Assembly (NCBI GenBank): GCA_016840165.1
Contig: JAEOSU010000024.1
Coordinates: 1-33,080 of the forward strand
DNA: 33,080 nt
Direction: 5' to 3'
From: Promethearchaeota archaeon
GTDB lineage: Archaea; Asgardarchaeota; Lokiarchaeia; Sigyniarchaeales; SOKP01
The translations under genes and the position numbers were made by a program. Shown here piece by piece: positions 3,080-11,104 of this stretch (position 1 is the stretch's first letter; every line of letters starts with the position of its first letter). The notes beneath the pieces are model-generated. The model had not been told where the DNA came from and searched no databases. It saw nothing but the letters and a program-made list of their open reading frames with translations.

Positions 3080-4534
3080 ATGAATTCCGTAAATCAAGTC
3101 TTTAATAAAGTCTTACTGGACATTCTTCCCTCCAAAAAAGAACTGGAGAAGACTATGAATATAGTAAAAAAAATTAGAGACTTATTGTCTTCGAAAGCAA
3201 AAGAGTTAAATATAGAATATACAAAAATTGAAGCTCAAGGTTCAACCGGGATAAAAAACACGCAATTAAAAGGTGATTTCGATATTGACCTTTTCATTGG
3301 TTTAGATTATGAAAAAATCAGGCATAATTTTAAAGGGTTGAGTAAAAATAAATTAAAAAAAGAATTAAAATCACTTTTTCTAAAGTATTGTAATACATGG
3401 CTCATAAAATCATTACCCAAAGAATATTTTTCAGAACCACGATTACTGTATGCAGAACATCCCTATGTGACTGTATCTTATTTAGCAGAAGATGAGGAGA
3501 TTAAGGTCGATATCGTCTTATACTTTGATCTAACCCTTGATTACATTGGAAAATATGGTCCAATAACCGCTGTAGACAGATCTCCATTGCATGGTCGCTT
3601 CATAAGAGACAATCTATCTTCCGAACAAAAAAATGATGTGCGATTGTTAAAACAATTTTTTAAGGCAGCTCACTGTTATGGTGATAAAAGTGCACTTGGA
3701 AAGGTTGGATTTATAGGTTATAGCGCAGAATTATTAGTCTATTATTTTGGTGATTTAACTACACTATTTAACCGATTTCATGAGCTTGAGTCAAAATCGC
3801 TTGATTATTATAACCGATCGGAAAAAGAATTAAGTGACATCATTCATTTTCAAAATGATTATTTAATTATCATCGATCCGATCGATAAAAATAGAAACGT
3901 GGCATCTGCGATTTCAAAGCGAGCATATAAGTATTGCAAGCACTTGATTTCTAAGTTTTTAGAAAAACCCAGTGAGTCATATTTCGAACAACGTGAAATT
4001 CAAGAAGCAAATTTAACCAAATTTGATGAAGGAAAAATAAAACACTTTTTTATTGCAGAGTTATTTAACCAAAATGAAGAGATACACTATACGGTAAATC
4101 GAGACAAACTTTATTCGCTCGCAGACAGTATAAAAGCTACAGGAGAGCGGGAATACAGTCATGATAAACGATTTGGGTCTATAGAATTTGAACTTTATTT
4201 TGATGACAACTTAAATGAGTACGATTTAGCCTTTTATGTGCAACATCCAAAAATATCAGAAACCTATTTGAGACAAGGACCGCCTCTAAAGGAGAAATAT
4301 CACGTTACAAAATTTAAAGAAAAAAATCCCAATTTTATTATCAAAAATGACTATCTCTGGGTGGAAACTAAAAGAGATTATAACGACTTTTTAAGCTATT
4401 TGAGAACATATATGAATGAAAATATTCCTAAGAATTTCAAAATTAAGAATATTTCAAATATTGTTGAGATCCAAACTAGTTTAGCTAGAAAAGCTTTATA
4501 TATTCTTGATAATATGGTTCTTCCATTTATTTAA
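3080..4534 (+). CDS. cca: Class I (archaeal) CCA-adding enzyme
   Basis: QGS...T.LKGDFDIDLF nucleotidyltransferase motif, YAEHPYV, TAVDRSPLH, VRLLKQF, GF.GY.AELLV, DPIDKNRNVASA, GPP. Confidence 0.95.
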   Translation: MNSVNQVFNKVLLDILPSKKELEKTMNIVKKIRDLLSSKAKELNIEYTKIEAQGSTGIKNTQLKGDFDIDLFIGLDYEKIRHNFKGLSKNKLKKELKSLFLKYCNTWLIKSLPKEYFSEPRLLYAEHPYVTVSYLAEDEEIKVDIVLYFDLTLDYIGKYGPITAVDRSPLHGRFIRDNLSSEQKNDVRLLKQFFKAAHCYGDKSALGKVGFIGYSAELLVYYFGDLTTLFNRFHELESKSLDYYNRSEKELSDIIHFQNDYLIIIDPIDKNRNVASAISKRAYKYCKHLISKFLEKPSESYFEQREIQEANLTKFDEGKIKHFFIAELFNQNEEIHYTVNRDKLYSLADSIKATGEREYSHDKRFGSIEFELYFDDNLNEYDLAFYVQHPKISETYLRQGPPLKEKYHVTKFKEKNPNFIIKNDYLWVETKRDYNDFLSYLRTYMNENIPKNFKIKNISNIVEIQTSLARKALYILDNMVLPFI

Positions 4535-4625: not shown

Positions 4626-5222
4626 ATGTACGATAATCAAAATTACTTGGAATATGAGGATGATAATTTATTTGATTCTTATAAAAATGAATATGTCTCT
4701 ACCATCTCAAATCTTTCCAGACAAGTTCGAACTTTATTGAATTATAGAGCTGCATTAATATATCATAGATTAAAACGTATTGAAGTAAAAACTGATGATC
4801 TTATACTTTCTAAATTTCAAATTAATAAAAGTAAATTTGAATCTCTAGCATTAAGATTTATCAAATTATCTCGTAATTTAACTCTTTATGAGGATCAACA
4901 TCATAATCTATCAAACTTTAGAAAAAAGAAATACTCCTCGATTTTAAAGGATATCGCACGTTTAACTAATCAAATATTTATTCTTTTACATTTTTTCTCA
5001 GAAGAAAACATGCTTTTACGTCCATTATTTTTTAAAGTACTAATGAGGATAGCACAAGAAGCGTGCAAAATAGAAATGTATCGAATTAAAGGGCATTTTG
5101 AATTCTATAAAGAATTATGTAAAAACTATAGATCAATAGAAAAGGAGGTTTCAAGACTATTTTTGAATACTGATTGCCAAAAACTTGAAAAACAAGAAGA
5201 AGGTGAAATAATAAGTATATGA
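4626..5222 (+). CDS. Hypothetical helical protein, probably translationally coupled to the LAGLIDADG gene
   Basis: 198-aa ORF whose TGA overlaps the next ATG (ATGA at 5219..5222); no family recognised. Confidence 0.7.
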   Translation: MYDNQNYLEYEDDNLFDSYKNEYVSTISNLSRQVRTLLNYRAALIYHRLKRIEVKTDDLILSKFQINKSKFESLALRFIKLSRNLTLYEDQHHNLSNFRKKKYSSILKDIARLTNQIFILLHFFSEENMLLRPLFFKVLMRIAQEACKIEMYRIKGHFEFYKELCKNYRSIEKEVSRLFLNTDCQKLEKQEEGEIISI

Positions 5223-7606
5223 AAACATATACAATGGTAAGTCGGAAATCTCTGGAAGAAGATCGAATAGCAATATGTCCTAAATTTGGTTGTGAAAGTT
5301 TAACTAGAGTTAAACCATTGAAATTTGGATTTTTAGGATTCGGAAAGTATCCAAAATGTAAAAAACATAAAATGCCATTAATATATATTGATGAAAGAAT
5401 TGGAGATTTTGTGGATGCTGCTCTATCATGCCTTTTCGATATATCAAGTTTACCTCCTAAAAATCTACTCTCTATGATTTCGGAGAAAATTCCCAATGAA
5501 CTAGATACATTTGTTAAAATCTGGATATCTTGTATAACAATTGGAAGAGGAGCACCCATAATATCTAGGTATATGGATTCGATTTCTAACTCATATCTTA
5601 AACATTTAACTAAAAAGCAAATTAAGTCGATTAATAACTGCGATAAAACAAAAAAGAATAATTATCAAACAATTAAGAATGGACTTCAAGAAGTTACGAA
5701 TCAATATACAAGATTACTTAAACACTTGAGAACTCATCATGAAGTTTTTAACTACCCTAAACAACTCAAACCATTTTCAAATAGCCTGAGAACTATACTT
5801 ACAATTTGGCTTGAAAATTGTAAAAAAGTAGAAAAAGAAATAATTTCGAATGAACAAAAATCCGATAAATCTTTAACTGAAGTAAAAAATATGTATGATT
5901 CTCTCCTTAATATAGGAATACTCATGTGCTTACTTGGATATTCAACAAAAAAGAGAGAAAAATTAACAAATAAAATAACGGCATTCGATCGTTTTAATGC
6001 TTATCACGAATTTTATACAAATGGAATTACTAGAAAATTTACTAAGAATGATATTTTGGCATTATATCAAAATATTTTCCAAAATTCTGAAGAAAATTTA
6101 TGTACTTTCGCTTCATTCGGACGAAAATTATCGGTCAATAACCCTGGGTTAAAAATTATCACCCCTAAGAGAGATATTATTAATCAATATACTCATTCTA
6201 ACGAGAAAAACATGATTTATAATTCATTTCTTAAAAAACTAAAATCTCCATCTGATAATTCAAATACTAATGCTAATAATTGGTTTACACAGATCCTATT
6301 AGAGACTATGAAACATTACTCCTTCCTGAAAGAATATGCTAGTCTTAGAAAAATGAGCATTCCTTTTGGATTATCGGATTCTTATCTTTATGATAAGAGA
6401 TACAAAAAATCGGTCATTTCTCATGAATATCTCGATGAAATGAGGAAAAATATAAGTGAATTTATTAAAAAAAAAATAAGATCAGATACTAATTTAACAA
6501 AAAAAGCATTAAAAGCACGAAATCAAATTGTTACTATTATTGAGAAATATAGGAATGAAAATAATCCGAAATTGACTGCAAATACTCAGATAAGTAAAAA
6601 ACTGAAAAAAAGTTATTTTCATGATATTTCTTCACCTCAACAAGCTTACTATCTAGGATTATTATTCGCTGATGGTTGGATAACTATTGCTCGAAGTAAA
6701 GGCGGTTCTCGTTCATTCAGAATCTCATTATCCCTAAAAGTTGAAGATAAACCAATCATTAAACGTTTTGCACAAGAGATTGGCTTAAACGAATCAAGAG
6801 TTCTTGAACGTGACAGCAAGGACCCAAAGACTGGAAATGTTTATCGCATGGCTTATCTACAATTTGGTGTTGGTAGCACATCAATAAAAAACTCCATGGC
6901 ACGTGATCTTATAAAGTTAGGAATGACATACAAAAAAGATACTATGGGAAAACGCAGCAAAGTTCCTATTCTCCCCGTTTTTTGTAACATTAAAGGCGAA
7001 GTAGACCAAGATCTAATGTTAGCATTTTTACTAGGTTATTTTGATGGCGATGGCACTTTGAAGGGATCTAATGGCGGAGAGATATATTCTAGCAATTATA
7101 ATTTTATTTCCGCTATAAAGATTGTGTATAATTTAGGAAAAATATGTAAAATCGAAAGAGTAAAATTTGATCCCCTTAAAAAATTTCATACAAAACGATC
7201 TCTTTATTCCTTATATATTAATAAAGAAATGTTTAAAGATATAATGAGTCTTAACTTGAATTCGATGGAAAGAAAAAGAGTCGACCCTAAATCGATTGTT
7301 CTTAATGCTCCTTTAATGACTAAACAAAGATTGTGGATAAAGAAAGAATTACCTAAAGAATATCTCAAGACAATCCTAAAAACCCATTCACCTAGTAAGA
7401 TCGCGAAATTAATTGGGATCGATCATAATACGTTTCTAAAATTCTTGAGAGTTGTTTACAATATCAAACCAAAAGAAAAGGGATATTATATAGCATTATC
7501 ATATGATAGAAAACAACAATCAGATAATAGTGAGTTAAATAGAATATATGTCGAAACAACAAGACACTTAATAGATATTGGTAAAAGAAATCCTTTCATT
7601 CAATAA
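5219..7606 (+). CDS. Multi-domain protein with an N-terminal Cys/His Zn-binding motif and a two-motif LAGLIDADG endonuclease domain
   Basis: YYLGLLFADG (6647..6676) and AFLLGYFDGDG (7022..7054). N-terminal CPKFGC...CKKH; HTH-like segments SLRKMSIPFGLSDSYL and SPSKIAKLIGIDHNTFLKFL. Confidence 0.85.
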   Translation: MKTYTMVSRKSLEEDRIAICPKFGCESLTRVKPLKFGFLGFGKYPKCKKHKMPLIYIDERIGDFVDAALSCLFDISSLPPKNLLSMISEKIPNELDTFVKIWISCITIGRGAPIISRYMDSISNSYLKHLTKKQIKSINNCDKTKKNNYQTIKNGLQEVTNQYTRLLKHLRTHHEVFNYPKQLKPFSNSLRTILTIWLENCKKVEKEIISNEQKSDKSLTEVKNMYDSLLNIGILMCLLGYSTKKREKLTNKITAFDRFNAYHEFYTNGITRKFTKNDILALYQNIFQNSEENLCTFASFGRKLSVNNPGLKIITPKRDIINQYTHSNEKNMIYNSFLKKLKSPSDNSNTNANNWFTQILLETMKHYSFLKEYASLRKMSIPFGLSDSYLYDKRYKKSVISHEYLDEMRKNISEFIKKKIRSDTNLTKKALKARNQIVTIIEKYRNENNPKLTANTQISKKLKKSYFHDISSPQQAYYLGLLFADGWITIARSKGGSRSFRISLSLKVEDKPIIKRFAQEIGLNESRVLERDSKDPKTGNVYRMAYLQFGVGSTSIKNSMARDLIKLGMTYKKDTMGKRSKVPILPVFCNIKGEVDQDLMLAFLLGYFDGDGTLKGSNGGEIYSSNYNFISAIKIVYNLGKICKIERVKFDPLKKFHTKRSLYSLYINKEMFKDIMSLNLNSMERKRVDPKSIVLNAPLMTKQRLWIKKELPKEYLKTILKTHSPSKIAKLIGIDHNTFLKFLRVVYNIKPKEKGYYIALSYDRKQQSDNSELNRIYVETTRHLIDIGKRNPFIQ

Positions 7607-7730
7607 AATTTATAAAAATAATCCTTGTTAGTCTAATAAATCTCTTAATTTTTAATAAAAGCATAAAATTTTTATGAATTAGAGTATTCAAACAATTAAT
7701 TATAATATTTAAAATAGTTGTGAATTTAAT

Positions 7731-10022
7731 ATGGTGAAAGTTAAAAACCCTGAGGACATCGTCCGGATGGTTACCAGCAAAAACTATGCGAAAAAGAGAA
7801 TTTTTTCGATTGTTGCACATATTGATCACGGTAAAACAACCGCATCCGACTATCTATTACGAAGAGCAGGTCTGATGCGGGAAGAGGATGCAGGACAGCT
7901 CCAAATGACCGATTCAGATTTAGAATAAGAATTACTTCTTCTACTGAAAGACGAGGAGCAAGAAAGAGGTATTACTATATTTACAAGTGTTGTACTCTTG
8001 TCGTTTAATGATCCTCGAGTACCTGATGATAAAGAACCATATATCTTTCAAATTAATGACACTCCAGGACATATCTCGTTTACAGGAGAAGTTTCCCGTG
8101 CTTTAAGAGGTTCTGATGGAGCAATTATCCTTGTTGATGCGTTAGAGGGAGTTATGACCCAGACTGAAACCAACATTCGGTTAGCTGTGGGCAAGGAACT
8201 CTGTAAACCGGTTTTATTCATTAATAAGGTTGATCGTTTGATTAGTGAGCTGAAATTAAGTCCAAAAGATACCTATGCCAAGATTGATGAGATTACGAAA
8301 CAAGTAAATGAATTAATCAAAAAAGTTAGACCTGAAGGAGAGGACTTTAGCGATTGGGGAGTAGATTTCGCTAAGAATAGTGTTGCCGTTGGCTCTGCGA
8401 AACATGGGTGGGGCTTTACTTATCAGATATTAAAAGATAAAGGACTAACTCCTTTAACTGTGTTTGAAAAGTACACCGAAGGCGATATCAATTGGTTGCG
8501 AGAAAACCTTCCGCTTGACGAACCAATGTTAAGAATGGTTGTTGATCATTTACCTGATCCTGTAACTGCAGCAAAATATAGACTACCCCATATCTGGGGC
8601 GGCGACTTGAATTCTGAGTTAGGAAAAGCGTTACAAAAAAGTGATCCCAAAGGACCTCTCTATGGGATGATTACAAAAATATTTTTAGACCCTAAAAGGA
8701 ATTATCAACCCACACTTATCGGAAGAGTATTTTCTGGAACGTTTGATCAATCAGATACCGTTTATTTAATAACTGGTCATGAAAAGCAGCGAGTAAAACG
8801 ATTAGGAGTTATGGAGATCACTGATATTTTAGATATACCCCAAGTACCTGCGGGAAATTTATTTGCTTTATACGGATTCATGTGTCCCTCAGGAGAAACA
8901 TTTATGTCTGCTGAAGATTTACCCAAAGAAAAGGAAGAAATAGACAGACTTCCTTCCTTCGAAAAGATAAGTTATGCTTGTGAAGCGGTAGTATCAAGAA
9001 GTATTAAACCCCATGATCCTCAAGATTTAGCCAAACTCGGAGATGTCGTCCAAAGATGGATTCAAGCTGATCCTACTGCAGAATTCCGTCGTAATGTTGA
9101 ATCGGGTGAGTATATTTTAAGTGGAATTGATCCATTACAAATCGAGATCTTAGTTAAACGTATTAATAACTTAGTAAAAATTGATGTTGGAGAGCCAATC
9201 ATTGTTTATCGAGAAAAAATCAATAAGAGAAGTAAAGAAATTTATACTAAATCTACAAATACACATAACCGGATATTACTCTACGTAGAGCCTGTGGATG
9301 AAAAAACTCATAAATTATTGGAATCTGGGAAGATAACACAGTACATGAATGAAAAAGATCGTGCAGTTTTATTTAGAGAAGAAGCAGGTTGGGATGCCAA
9401 GGAAGCCAGAAGAATAATTGATATTTATAATGGCAATCTATTGGTTAACGGAGCCTCTGGATTACAAAGGTTTGACCGCATTAAAAATGATCTTATTAGT
9501 GCGTATAGAGATTGGGTCAGTGAATGCATCATTGCAAAGGAACCTGCCATGGGCATTAAAGCAACATTTACAGATTTAGTGATTCATGAAGATCCCAGAC
9601 ATACGCAATACGCTCAAACTGCCAGTATGACTTTCTCAGCACTCTCCATTGCTACGCTGCAAGCTGACGCTCATTTATATGAACCAATACAAAAAATTGA
9701 TGTGAAGACACCTCAAGGCACTGAAGGTGGAGTGTTAGCAATTATAAATAAACATCGTGGCCAAGTTAATAACGTTATTCCTGAAGGTGAATATGTAAGA
9801 GTACAAGGACAACTTCCAGCAGCAGAACTCATCGGTATTGCGGATGAAATTCGTGGTACAACTCAAGGAAGAGCTTTTTTTGGGTATGAATTTAAAGGGT
9901 TTGAAAAAGTCCCGGCAAGTTTAGAAGAGGATTTAATATTGGAAATACGTAGGAGAAAAGGAATGCCAGAAACGATGCCATCCGCAGATAGTTGGTTGCG
10001 TTTCTTGTATAAAAAGACTTAA
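7731..10022 (+). CDS. fusA: Elongation factor 2 (EF-2 or paralog), join(7731..7919,7950..10022), 753 aa after removing a 30-nt intron
   Basis: ORFs 7731..7928 and 7998..10022 are in the same frame. G1 AHIDHGKTT is in exon 1; EEQERGIT (7953..7976), DTPGH and NKVD are in exon 2; C-terminal EPIQK..., RGTTQGRA, IRRRKG are intact. Confidence 0.92.
7920..7949 (+). other. Putative 30-nt BHB-type pre-mRNA intron in EF-2
   Basis: Central helix TCAG 7914..7917 / CTGA 7944..7947; 3-nt bulges ATT 7918..7920 and AAG 7948..7950; intron stem TAGAAtAAG 7921..7929 / CTTcTTCTA 7935..7943. Cutting after the 2nd nt of each bulge removes 7920..7949 and restores the EF-2 consensus spacing. Confidence 0.85.
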
Positions 10023-10195: not shown

Positions 10196-11104
10196 ATGTC
10201 TGAAGAACCAGAAGAATCACAACCTAGTAATGCAGGAGACTCTTTAAAAGAGAAGGAGGGCTCTGAGAATAATGATCTCGAAACTTATATGAAGGAAATT
10301 CAAAATCTTGAGACTGATTTCTCTGATCTGGATGAGCTAGATATGGAAGAGATATTAGAAATGCAAGAAGCGATAGCACAAGTTCGAGAGAGTGAAAAGT
10401 CTGATTCTATGAATAAAAAAGCAGATAATTATCTTCAAACAGATTCATTTGATTTATCACAAGAAAAAGCAGATTATTTATCCCAAAGGAAAACGATGAC
10501 CGCCGATTTTTCCGATCTTGAAGAGATTGATTTAGATGAATTAAAAGAGATGCAAGAAGCGATTGAAGAGGTTAAAGAAGAAGAACGATTACACACTGAA
10601 GACGAGGAAGGAGTAGTAGAACCAGTTGTTGGCATTAGTAGTGAGCTTGAAGACCGCATTAAACAAGAACTTTTAGAAAGAAAGAGGGTTGAAAAAAAAG
10701 AAATAATCACCCCTGAGTTATTTTTTGATTATATCAAGGATAAAAGGAATAAGATTTGGTATCACGCCTTATATTATATTCTATTTAATACTGAGGATTT
10801 CACTGCAAGTAAAGAATTATTATATGAAATGTTAAAGGAAGTCACCAGCAAAAGTCCTATTGATCCTATCCCTGAACATCAATTTTATTTTGGATTAGGT
10901 TATCTTTTAAAGCTCAGCTTAAATGATAGAAAAATTATTCGATATTATAAAGGTGGTAAGTTTAAGATCAATACTTCAGCAGAAGAATTGCAGGAAATCT
11001 TTACCGAAGCTGGAGAGCCAATTAGCACACGACCAATTATTAAAGAAGAAGAAAAGAAAAAAATGTTTAAGGATTTCTTAGAAGATGATTTTCAAGATAT
11101 ATAG
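10196..11104 (+). CDS. Hypothetical protein with an acidic repeated N-terminal region and a possible winged-helix-like C-terminal domain
   Basis: 302-aa ORF with two copies of DFSDL.E.D..E..EMQEAI..V spaced 63 aa apart. Confidence 0.8.
   Translation: MSEEPEESQPSNAGDSLKEKEGSENNDLETYMKEIQNLETDFSDLDELDMEEILEMQEAIAQVRESEKSDSMNKKADNYLQTDSFDLSQEKADYLSQRKTMTADFSDLEEIDLDELKEMQEAIEEVKEEERLHTEDEEGVVEPVVGISSELEDRIKQELLERKRVEKKEIITPELFFDYIKDKRNKIWYHALYYILFNTEDFTASKELLYEMLKEVTSKSPIDPIPEHQFYFGLGYLLKLSLNDRKIIRYYKGGKFKINTSAEELQEIFTEAGEPISTRPIIKEEEKKKMFKDFLEDDFQDI

Follow-up and report, generated by a model that had tools for sequence, protein, structure and literature searches.

A free-standing nuclease cassette beside a mini-intron in EF-2 suggests one way such introns spread in Asgard archaea

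LAGLIDADG homing endonucleases make site-specific double-strand cuts at long targets of about 20 bp, and in archaea enzymes of this kind (I-DmoI type) are encoded by bulge-helix-bulge (BHB) introns in ribosomal RNA (rRNA). Their monomeric form has two LAGLIDADG motifs, each of which opens an alpha-beta-beta-alpha-beta-beta-alpha half-domain and closes with an acidic residue that serves in metal binding and catalysis. BHB introns are marked by a central helix of 4 bp between two 3-nt bulges on opposite strands, with symmetrically placed cuts. They can also split coding sequences, as the intron in the cbf5 pre-mRNA of Crenarchaeota illustrates. In cyanophage S-PM2, the free-standing endonuclease F-CphI adjoins a group I intron of psbA that has no open reading frame (ORF) of its own, an arrangement described as collaborative homing (PMC2790892, PMC6083498). 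The T4 HNH nuclease MobE causes the intron in nrdB to move by trans-homing, through a cut that is not at the intron insertion site (PMC2790892), and T4 mobA accompanies a 50-nt insert in gene 60 that is bypassed in translation (bioRxiv 10.1101/2022.08.31.505936; PMC3014915). Here we describe a locus with features of all these systems in a 33,080-nt stretch of Promethearchaeota DNA (contig JAEOSU010000024.1 of assembly GCA_016840165.1; "the window" below), in which a two-gene nuclease cassette lies between cca and the EF-2 gene and EF-2 itself is split by a 30-nt BHB mini-intron. Full-text literature searches found no paper linking BHB introns to free-standing nucleases and none describing the cassette family.

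The source genome is a Lokiarchaeia-type Asgard metagenome-assembled genome of 3.6 Mb, with about 30% G+C and a completeness of 99.7%. It is called G000 here; other G, L, M, P and X labels denote the genomes, loci, alleles, proteins and sequencing runs or contigs of relatives with which it was compared. The cassette consists of a partner gene, ORF198, and of ORF795, in which an N-terminal domain (N-domain) is followed by a LAGLIDADG module; partner and N-domain together are referred to as the chassis. We read the cassette as a selfish, free-standing, site-specific nuclease element of the cca-EF-2 spacer, genetically coupled to a BHB mini-intron downstream that has no ORF, and put the probability of this reading at roughly 0.6.

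Co-occurrence of the cassette and the EF-2 intron

The original prediction, made from the letters of the window, described a two-gene cassette of 198 and 795 aa with an ATGA overlap between cca and EF-2, whose larger gene ends about 310 nt before the intron. Both statements agree with the coordinates obtained here (Table 1), by which 313 nt separate the end of ORF795 from the intron and 125 nt separate the end of the cassette from the EF-2 start. The prediction further proposed collaborative homing and set beforehand the co-occurrence of cassette and intron across relatives as its test. The gene order aIF5B-cca-EF-2 was maintained in all same-genus loci read. As predicted, occurrences of the cassette or its LAGLIDADG module at cca-EF-2 were confined to alleles with the intron, in nine lineages, and none was beside the 30 same-genus EF-2 alleles that lack the intron; in these, the cca-EF-2 gap measures 0.13-2 kb and contains no cassette match. 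The genomes are related, so these counts do not equal independent events, and metagenome contigs may come from the same populations. The same-genus intron-plus alleles (n = 4) comprise two with a cassette, namely the full LAGLIDADG cassette of G000 and, in G016, the same chassis with an HNH module, one with a second-half LAGLIDADG remnant that is 55% identical (G015), and one with neither (G024). A further cassette, with the same chassis and a GIY-YIG module, lies in G007 on a contig that ends in exon 1, before the intron site.

In addition, the LAGLIDADG module lies directly upstream of an intron-split EF-2 gene in 9/9 lineages, and all its public homologues with readable context (50-68% identity) are directly 5' of a split EF-2 gene (L129/130, L131/132, L133, L134, L135, L138/139, L146-148 and the X6 contig). 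The cassette is full in L134, L135, L138/139 and L146-148; the proteins of L129/130, L131/132 and L133 are N-terminally shortened, with a partner-gene remnant still present in L131. Homologs at many unrelated loci, which the original prediction had named as evidence against itself, were found for the N-domain and the partner only, and that part of the objection stands; it does not extend to the LAGLIDADG module, whose orthologues with readable context are all at cca-EF-2. A close strain from another study carries both cassette and intron, and a sediment DNA run yielded an intron-less EF-2 allele of about 96% identity. Between L138 and G024, the flanks are 84-86% identical and the 3.2-kb cassette of L138 is cleanly replaced by 90 nt in G024. 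Stages of a life cycle are visible among these loci, from the full cassette through N-terminal deletion and a half-domain remnant (G015) to the intron alone (G024). The G015 assembly also contains a 682-nt contig (L126, G015:C109) with an intron-less EF-2 allele, which reflects either strain heterogeneity, with both alleles in one population, or contamination.

The distribution of the intron is scattered. Intron-plus genomes occupy four separate, well-supported places on the aIF5B plus cca tree, and on the EF-2 tree the nine intron-plus alleles need at least seven gains or losses. Differing intron states occur even between near-identical sister EF-2 alleles (M134/G020, G016/G036 and M131/G061). 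Exon 1 was less similar than distal exon 2 in M134-G020 (79% compared with 95% identity, p 2e-9), in G015-G035 (77% compared with 90%, p 3e-5) and in G016-G036 (87% compared with 93%, p 0.025), and the first 120 nt of exon 2 in mixed-state pairs were already 91-94% identical. No drop of exon-1 identity was seen in same-state control pairs. Judged from these alignments, exon 1 looks like part of a co-conversion tract that comprises cassette, exon 1 and intron and ends near the intron. Among intron-plus alleles, long co-conversion tracts were not found; there was only a local identity peak at -24..+6, largely because of the exon part of the BHB outer helix. Taken together, these comparisons support the collaborative-homing reading of cassette and intron.

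The EF-2 mini-intron and the nuclease of ORF795

The insert lies exactly between GATTCAGAT and GACGAGGAG and contains an in-frame TAA within its 30 nt. The 30 same-genus EF-2 orthologues are uninterrupted at this point and read DSD/DEE(QERG) or DSD/EEE(QARG) (a slash marks the insertion point), and a homologous 30-nt insert is present at the identical point in G000, G015, G016 and G024. TCAG, at the end of exon 1, pairs with CTGA towards the 3' end of the intron in a 4-bp helix, 3-nt bulges (AT/T and AA/G) flanking this helix hold the junctions, and an inner hairpin follows; the minimum free energy structure given by RNAfold recovers this BHB motif together with an outer exon-exon helix, GCUCC/GGAGC. 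In 10 alleles the four central pairs are invariant, and 92% of cells pair; with the partners slid, this share is 44-64%. A 29-nt variant, present in one lineage, puts exon 2 out of frame unless excised. The 99.7%-complete G000 was found to hold one EF-2-family gene, that of the window. By logic, the in-frame TAA, the 29-nt variant and the single EF-2 gene would require removal of the intron at the RNA level. Genes for two EndA-family proteins and for one RtcB, each scoring above its Pfam cut-off, are present in G000, and the intron is probably spliced from EF-2 mRNA by these host enzymes. The EndA-family genes (about 206-208 aa; G000:C14:37158-37382 and G000:C4:49673-49921) may form a two-subunit splicing endonuclease of the type that accepts relaxed BHB motifs.

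The intron is unrecognised in deposited annotations (L129-L139, L146-L148), where the split EF-2 appears as a 65-aa ORF and an N-terminally truncated EF-2; the 30-nt intron explains why public gene calls divide EF-2 into this stub and a truncated body. In G015 (L053:7600) and in L129:7978 (GCA_019894875.1) the EF-2 frame starts with IVKVK at an ATA codon, and in the others at ATG, which suggests a non-AUG start or a damaged start codon in these two.

The prediction that ORF795 has two LAGLIDADG motifs with acidic catalytic positions was borne out, the motifs being at aa 476-488 and aa 601-614 with D485 and D611. The G-D-G of the second motif is invariant, and each of the 24 aligned rows that span the first has D or E at its acidic position. 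ORF795 matches Pfam LAGLIDADG_3 (E 5.8e-7) and PHROG 4645, "endonuclease" (E 4.6e-21). An AlphaFold2 model of aa 440-795 reached a predicted local distance difference test score (pLDDT) of 86.6, and Foldseek with this model returned 83 matches at E<=1e-3, including I-DmoI, I-SceI, I-AniI, PI-PfuI and the bI3 maturase at probability 1.0. A sequence search of the module against the PDB gave no match; the fold search alone succeeded. The module spans aa ~335-795 and comprises a helix-turn-helix (HTH)-like segment, two half-domains and a helical tail, and the linker and HTH-like part are retained in the LAGLIDADG orthologues P0003 and P0005, which have no N-domain. By its modelled fold and the conservation of both motif acidic residues in aligned homologues, the nuclease looks intact.

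The features of the region are collected in Table 1. The promoter-like element between cassette and EF-2 is conserved, with minor variants, upstream of EF-2 in intron-plus and intron-minus genomes alike, and is probably a promoter. Downstream of EF-2 (10196-11104) the window encodes an acidic 302-aa protein that occurs genus-wide at 53-59% identity and has no Pfam family.

Table 1. Features of the cca-EF-2 region, in positions of the window
Feature	Position	Strand	Remarks
cca (CCA-adding enzyme)	3080..4534	+	Pfam tRNA_NucTransf2, E 8.8e-23; upstream flank of the insertion site, conserved
ORF198, partner gene, 198 aa, all-helical	4626..5222	+	no known family; translationally coupled to ORF795 through the ATGA overlap
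ORF795, 795 aa	5219..7606	+	start overlaps the end of ORF198 by ATGA
ORF795 aa 1-285, N-domain	5219..6073	+	zinc ribbon (C20, C25, C47, H50) and helical bundle; family-wide
ORF795 aa 286-460, linker and HTH-like segment FGLSDSYLYDKR (aa 383-394)	6074..6598	+	part of the LAGLIDADG module
ORF795 aa 461-795, double-motif LAGLIDADG core and C-terminal helical HTH-like tail	6599..7606	+	motifs at 6644-6682 and 7019-7060
Promoter-like element CATAAAATTTTTATGA	7662..7677	+	between the cassette end and the EF-2 start
EF-2 exon 1, 63 codons, P-loop AHIDHGKTT	7731..7919	+	between cassette and intron
BHB mini-intron, 30 nt, in the switch-I coding sequence (DSD/DEEQERGITI)	7920..7949	+	BHB motif, in-frame TAA
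EF-2 exon 2	7950..10022	+	Pfam GTP_EFTU, EFG_III, EFG_IV, EFG_C; continues in frame

A modular family of cassettes

ORF198 and ORF795 are each single-copy in G000. Across 60 relatives, the partner (about 205 aa) and the N-terminal ~285 aa of the large protein occur again as an adjacent, coupled pair on many contigs, and a single genome can have up to about a dozen matches. The partner gene was directly 5' of the N-domain gene in 40/43 family copies read, mostly ending at the start of the latter. Over these 43 copies N-domain identity is 38-82%, with the Cys and His of the zinc ribbon invariant or nearly so, and public data hold at least 240 N-domain family clusters, of which the named ones are all "hypothetical" proteins of Lokiarchaeota/Promethearchaeota. 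Partner and N-domain had no match in Pfam, NCBIfam, PADLOC or PHROGs, and a PDB profile search with them gave nothing below E 0.7. The AlphaFold2 model of the N-domain (pLDDT 82.6) shows a zinc ribbon and a helical bundle, and its fold had no credible match in Foldseek/PDB, in a wide VIA-align search (best Z 5.8, generic helical bundles) or in the ESM Atlas (template-modelling score, TM, <=0.27); ESM Atlas feature searches with partner and N-domain gave no usable match either. In a model of the complex, partner and N-domain reached an interface score (ipSAE) of 0.67, compared with 0.00 for the best of 3 controls; in calibration, this mark was reached by 58/80 solved complexes and by 2/110 mismatched pairs. 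The partner is placed on helices 156-186 of the N-domain with a contact agreement between runs of at least 79% and a partner pLDDT of at least 66, and the modelled interface consists of the most conserved residues of both proteins. The partner is predicted on this basis to bind the N-domain.

Beyond about aa 290 the sequence is exchangeable. Family members carry Pfam LAGLIDADG_3, GIY-YIG, HNH_3, RNase_T, a DUF4379 treble-clef finger or an intein, and several C-terminal types have no Pfam match; the presence of the partner tracks the N-domain, independent of the nuclease type. The exchange can be seen at the cca-EF-2 site, where the cassettes of G000 and G007 share 85.6% DNA identity over partner gene and N-domain and are unrelated from ~aa 293 onwards (LAGLIDADG and GIY-YIG, respectively). 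At the sequence level, this difference is a swap of the nuclease module on a retained chassis; no donor of the GIY-YIG module was found, its closest counterparts among the copies read being only ~32% identical. The flanks of many family copies map to adjacent points of G000 that are free of a cassette, 10-200 nt apart at the cleanest sites. Several genomes are occupied at the same site, and of the 11 multi-genome sites compared, 10 have one C-terminal type in all their copies. The copies are multiple and are inserted between genes in a site-specific manner, and the family is a Lokiarchaeial one, previously undescribed and unannotated, modular and with exchangeable nucleases. In L065 (G004:C54) and the public proteins P0060, P0062, P0081 and P0092, the LAGLIDADG sequence lies inside an intein-splicing domain that is fused to the same N-domain. 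The flanks of the window's cassette showed no terminal inverted repeats or target-site duplications, only short AT-rich chance matches, a pattern more in keeping with recombination than with transposition. Pfam and NCBIfam showed no transposase domain in the cassette proteins, and in these respects the element differs from DNA transposons and insertion sequences.

Mini-introns also occur beside other family members. By homology with G000, which is cassette-free at the sites concerned, four other cassettes at three sites were found to be followed by a first downstream gene with an insert of 30-32 nt in a conserved motif, at a distance of 260-650 nt from the end of the cassette. These inserts lie in leucyl-tRNA synthetase (LeuRS) at GYD/SFGLP, with a canonical BHB; in a chelatase-like AAA-VWA protein at NPEE/GELRPQ, where the insert of 32 nt is frame-shifting; and in a zinc alcohol dehydrogenase at RCG/ICGSD, with a less canonical motif. 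The other aligned flank, 67 kb in all, yielded no such insert (the near-downstream class amounts to 21 kb), and for introns common to both compared genomes only low-similarity gaps were seen. A motif-based scanner of cassette flanks that combined BHB search with ORF merging was set aside, being too noisy alone in DNA of 30% G+C.

Further inserts were observed in the GTPase genes of the cca-EF-2 neighbourhood. The EF-2 gene of G016 has a second insert (L052, G016:C76, reverse strand near 5351-5365), 31 nt long, in the P-loop at AHID/HGKTT, which is frame-shifting unless removed. L135:6540-6580 (GCA_004196295.1) has a 29-nt insert in the EF-2 P-loop at HG/KT, and L138:880-925 (a JGI/ENA contig; also L139) has a 32-nt insert at the same P-loop motif of aIF5B, both with an ATGG/CCAT central helix. 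The HIDHGKT coding sequence common to translational GTPases may be a recurrent target, and with several nuclease types and several mini-introns here, these elements may be competing for the conserved GTPase motifs of the neighbourhood. In G015, a second nuclease-type gene, of 559 aa and with a DUF4379 treble-clef finger and LAGLIDADG_3 (L053:12435-14111, minus strand), lies ~2.5 kb downstream of EF-2, and the EF-2 neighbourhood looks like a hot spot for genes of this type.

Mechanism, alternatives and known systems

If the cassette is a homing element coupled to the mini-intron, its LAGLIDADG module would recognise the conserved switch-I coding sequence of intron-less EF-2 and cut at or near the junction of GATTCAGAT and GA(C/A)GAGGAG. 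The break would be repaired from the element-bearing allele, by which intron, exon 1, promoter spacer and 3-kb cassette would be copied as one tract. In a carrier genome the 30-nt intron splits the target, and ORF795, which we infer to cleave the intron-less allele at the insertion site, would leave its own EF-2 gene uncut, the intron thereby giving immunity. The host tRNA-splicing endonuclease, from the two EndA genes, and the RtcB ligase would excise the intron from the mRNA, and EF-2 would still be made. As modelled, the complex of partner and N-domain could serve as a site-independent chassis for exchanged nuclease modules.

Several observations weigh against this reading. The direction of the exon-1 tract is compatible with gain or with loss of the element, and the direction of transfer is one that we infer. 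Divergence among the cassettes is about that of cca, a host gene that evolves fast, and no recent transfer has been caught. The GIY-YIG module of G007 and the HNH module of G016 sit on the same chassis at the same site, so LAGLIDADG is not the sole nuclease linked to cca-EF-2. About 36 of the 43 family copies compared with G000 have no adjacent mini-intron, and four further members in public contigs (4/4) lack an obviously split downstream gene; mini-introns are accordingly one solution, found in part of the family. Covariation within the intron is weak, with a single two-sided change, A-U to U-A, in 10 alleles, and metatranscriptome run X20, the only RNA run with related sequence, gave short pieces of which none bridges the junction. 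The top structural match of the LAGLIDADG model is a LAGLIDADG maturase. Finally, the intron without any cassette in G024 is an exception to co-inheritance and qualifies the reading.

The three nuclease types at this one site, the extra P-loop mini-introns nearby (EF-2 of G016 and L135, aIF5B of L138) and the many family members without an adjacent intron would all be accommodated if the nuclease target lay in the spacer, exon 1 or the P-loop, with the intron moved by trans-homing or hitch-hiking within co-conversion distance and immunity coming from other sequence differences; in T4, MobE moves the nrdB intron although it does not cut where that intron is inserted (PMC2790892). We regard this as rather unlikely, however, because the diverged tract stops near the intron, with the first 120 nt of exon 2 at 91-94% identity, because no LAGLIDADG-bearing allele lacks the intron (9/9 lineages), and because the inserts are in the most conserved motifs, which are typical targets of homing endonucleases.

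Cassette and intron might instead have been present in the ancestor of the genus and been inherited vertically with many joint losses, in the absence of nuclease-driven transfer. Cassette identities (N-domain 59-85%, LAGLIDADG 50-68%) are similar to those of host genes such as cca, as expected under such descent, and distant hosts showed no near-identical cassette. Against this, at least seven state changes are needed, some of them between near-identical EF-2 alleles; a precise joint loss of a 30-nt intron and a cassette 313 nt away itself needs gene conversion from an empty allele; and the discordance of exon 1 shows recombination. Purely vertical inheritance is therefore improbable.

Less probable still is a defence or toxin-antitoxin-like module with the partner as regulator or antidote and the intron nearby by coincidence. 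The exchangeable C-terminal nucleases, which include an RNase T-type exonuclease, the coupled small partner with its predicted binding, the patchy multi-copy distribution and some clustering of copies would suit such a module, but neither cassette protein matched the PADLOC models at E<=0.01, the partner follows the N-domain rather than the nuclease type, one C-terminal type is found per site in 10/11 multi-genome sites, and mini-introns recur beside cassettes at four sites. We give hardly any credence to the idea that the LAGLIDADG protein is a maturase or regulator for the split EF-2 gene or that the ribosome bypasses the 30 nt as in T4 gene 60. In favour of these ideas are the bI3 maturase and the bifunctional I-AniI among the best structural matches, and the association of T4 mobA with a bypass insert of 50 nt (bioRxiv 10.1101/2022.08.31.505936). 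On the other side, G024 has kept the intron although it lacks the protein, the acidic residues at the catalytic positions are conserved, and a BHB intron needs no more than EndA and RtcB, which are both encoded. The motif is a canonical BHB, and there are no matched take-off and landing codons, since GAC, GAA or GAT follows the insert.

A census of the tRNA introns of Asgard archaea, dated 2026, tested several routes of arrival, found none that was general and concluded that the question of arrival was still open (bioRxiv 10.64898/2026.10.13.758758). The EF-2 locus offers a concrete route by which a BHB intron could arrive, namely a chromosomal free-standing nuclease that travels with a mini-intron placed inside a conserved coding motif, and it does so with natural intron-plus and intron-minus EF-2 alleles. 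The cassette with its EF-2 mini-intron suggests one way in which such introns spread in Asgard archaea. EF-2 joins the very few protein-coding mRNAs that apparently need tRNA-type splicing, and the locus defines a large unannotated Lokiarchaeial protein family with exchangeable nuclease modules. More tentatively, and with doubts that outweigh our confidence, Asgard protein-coding BHB mini-introns, and possibly some tRNA introns, might arise and spread as self-immunity inserts against lineage-specific modular free-standing nucleases. If this were true, gene conversion driven by nucleases would be a general way for introns to be gained in the archaea most closely related to eukaryotes, and the chassis of partner and N-domain would represent a new means of exchanging nuclease modules from one genomic target to another.

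Among known systems, the locus resembles F-CphI and psbA in that a free-standing endonuclease gene stands beside a gene split by an ORF-less intron at a conserved coding site, and the two are co-inherited. It differs from that self-splicing group I system in having a 29-30-nt BHB intron that would be spliced by host tRNA-splicing enzymes, in lying on a cellular Asgard chromosome rather than in a phage, and in that the LAGLIDADG enzyme, whose cleavage is presumed, is fused to a new N-domain and accompanied by a partner protein. As with MobE and nrdB, a neighbouring free-standing nuclease would mobilise an immobile intron, and a short distance between cut site and intron matters; unlike the HNH enzyme MobE, which cuts away from the insertion site, the tract here appears to end at the intron. 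Like mobA and the gene 60 insert, a short non-coding hairpin insert with a stop codon in an essential gene travels with an adjacent free-standing nuclease, but the ribosome skips the gene 60 insert, whereas the EF-2 insert has the motif of a BHB splicing substrate and no matched take-off and landing codons. Finally, the locus shares with the rRNA introns of the I-DmoI type the combination of a BHB intron and a LAGLIDADG nuclease in an archaeon, and departs from them in that the nuclease gene is outside the intron, in an intergenic position ~0.3 kb upstream, and the mini-intron is in the mRNA of a translation factor.

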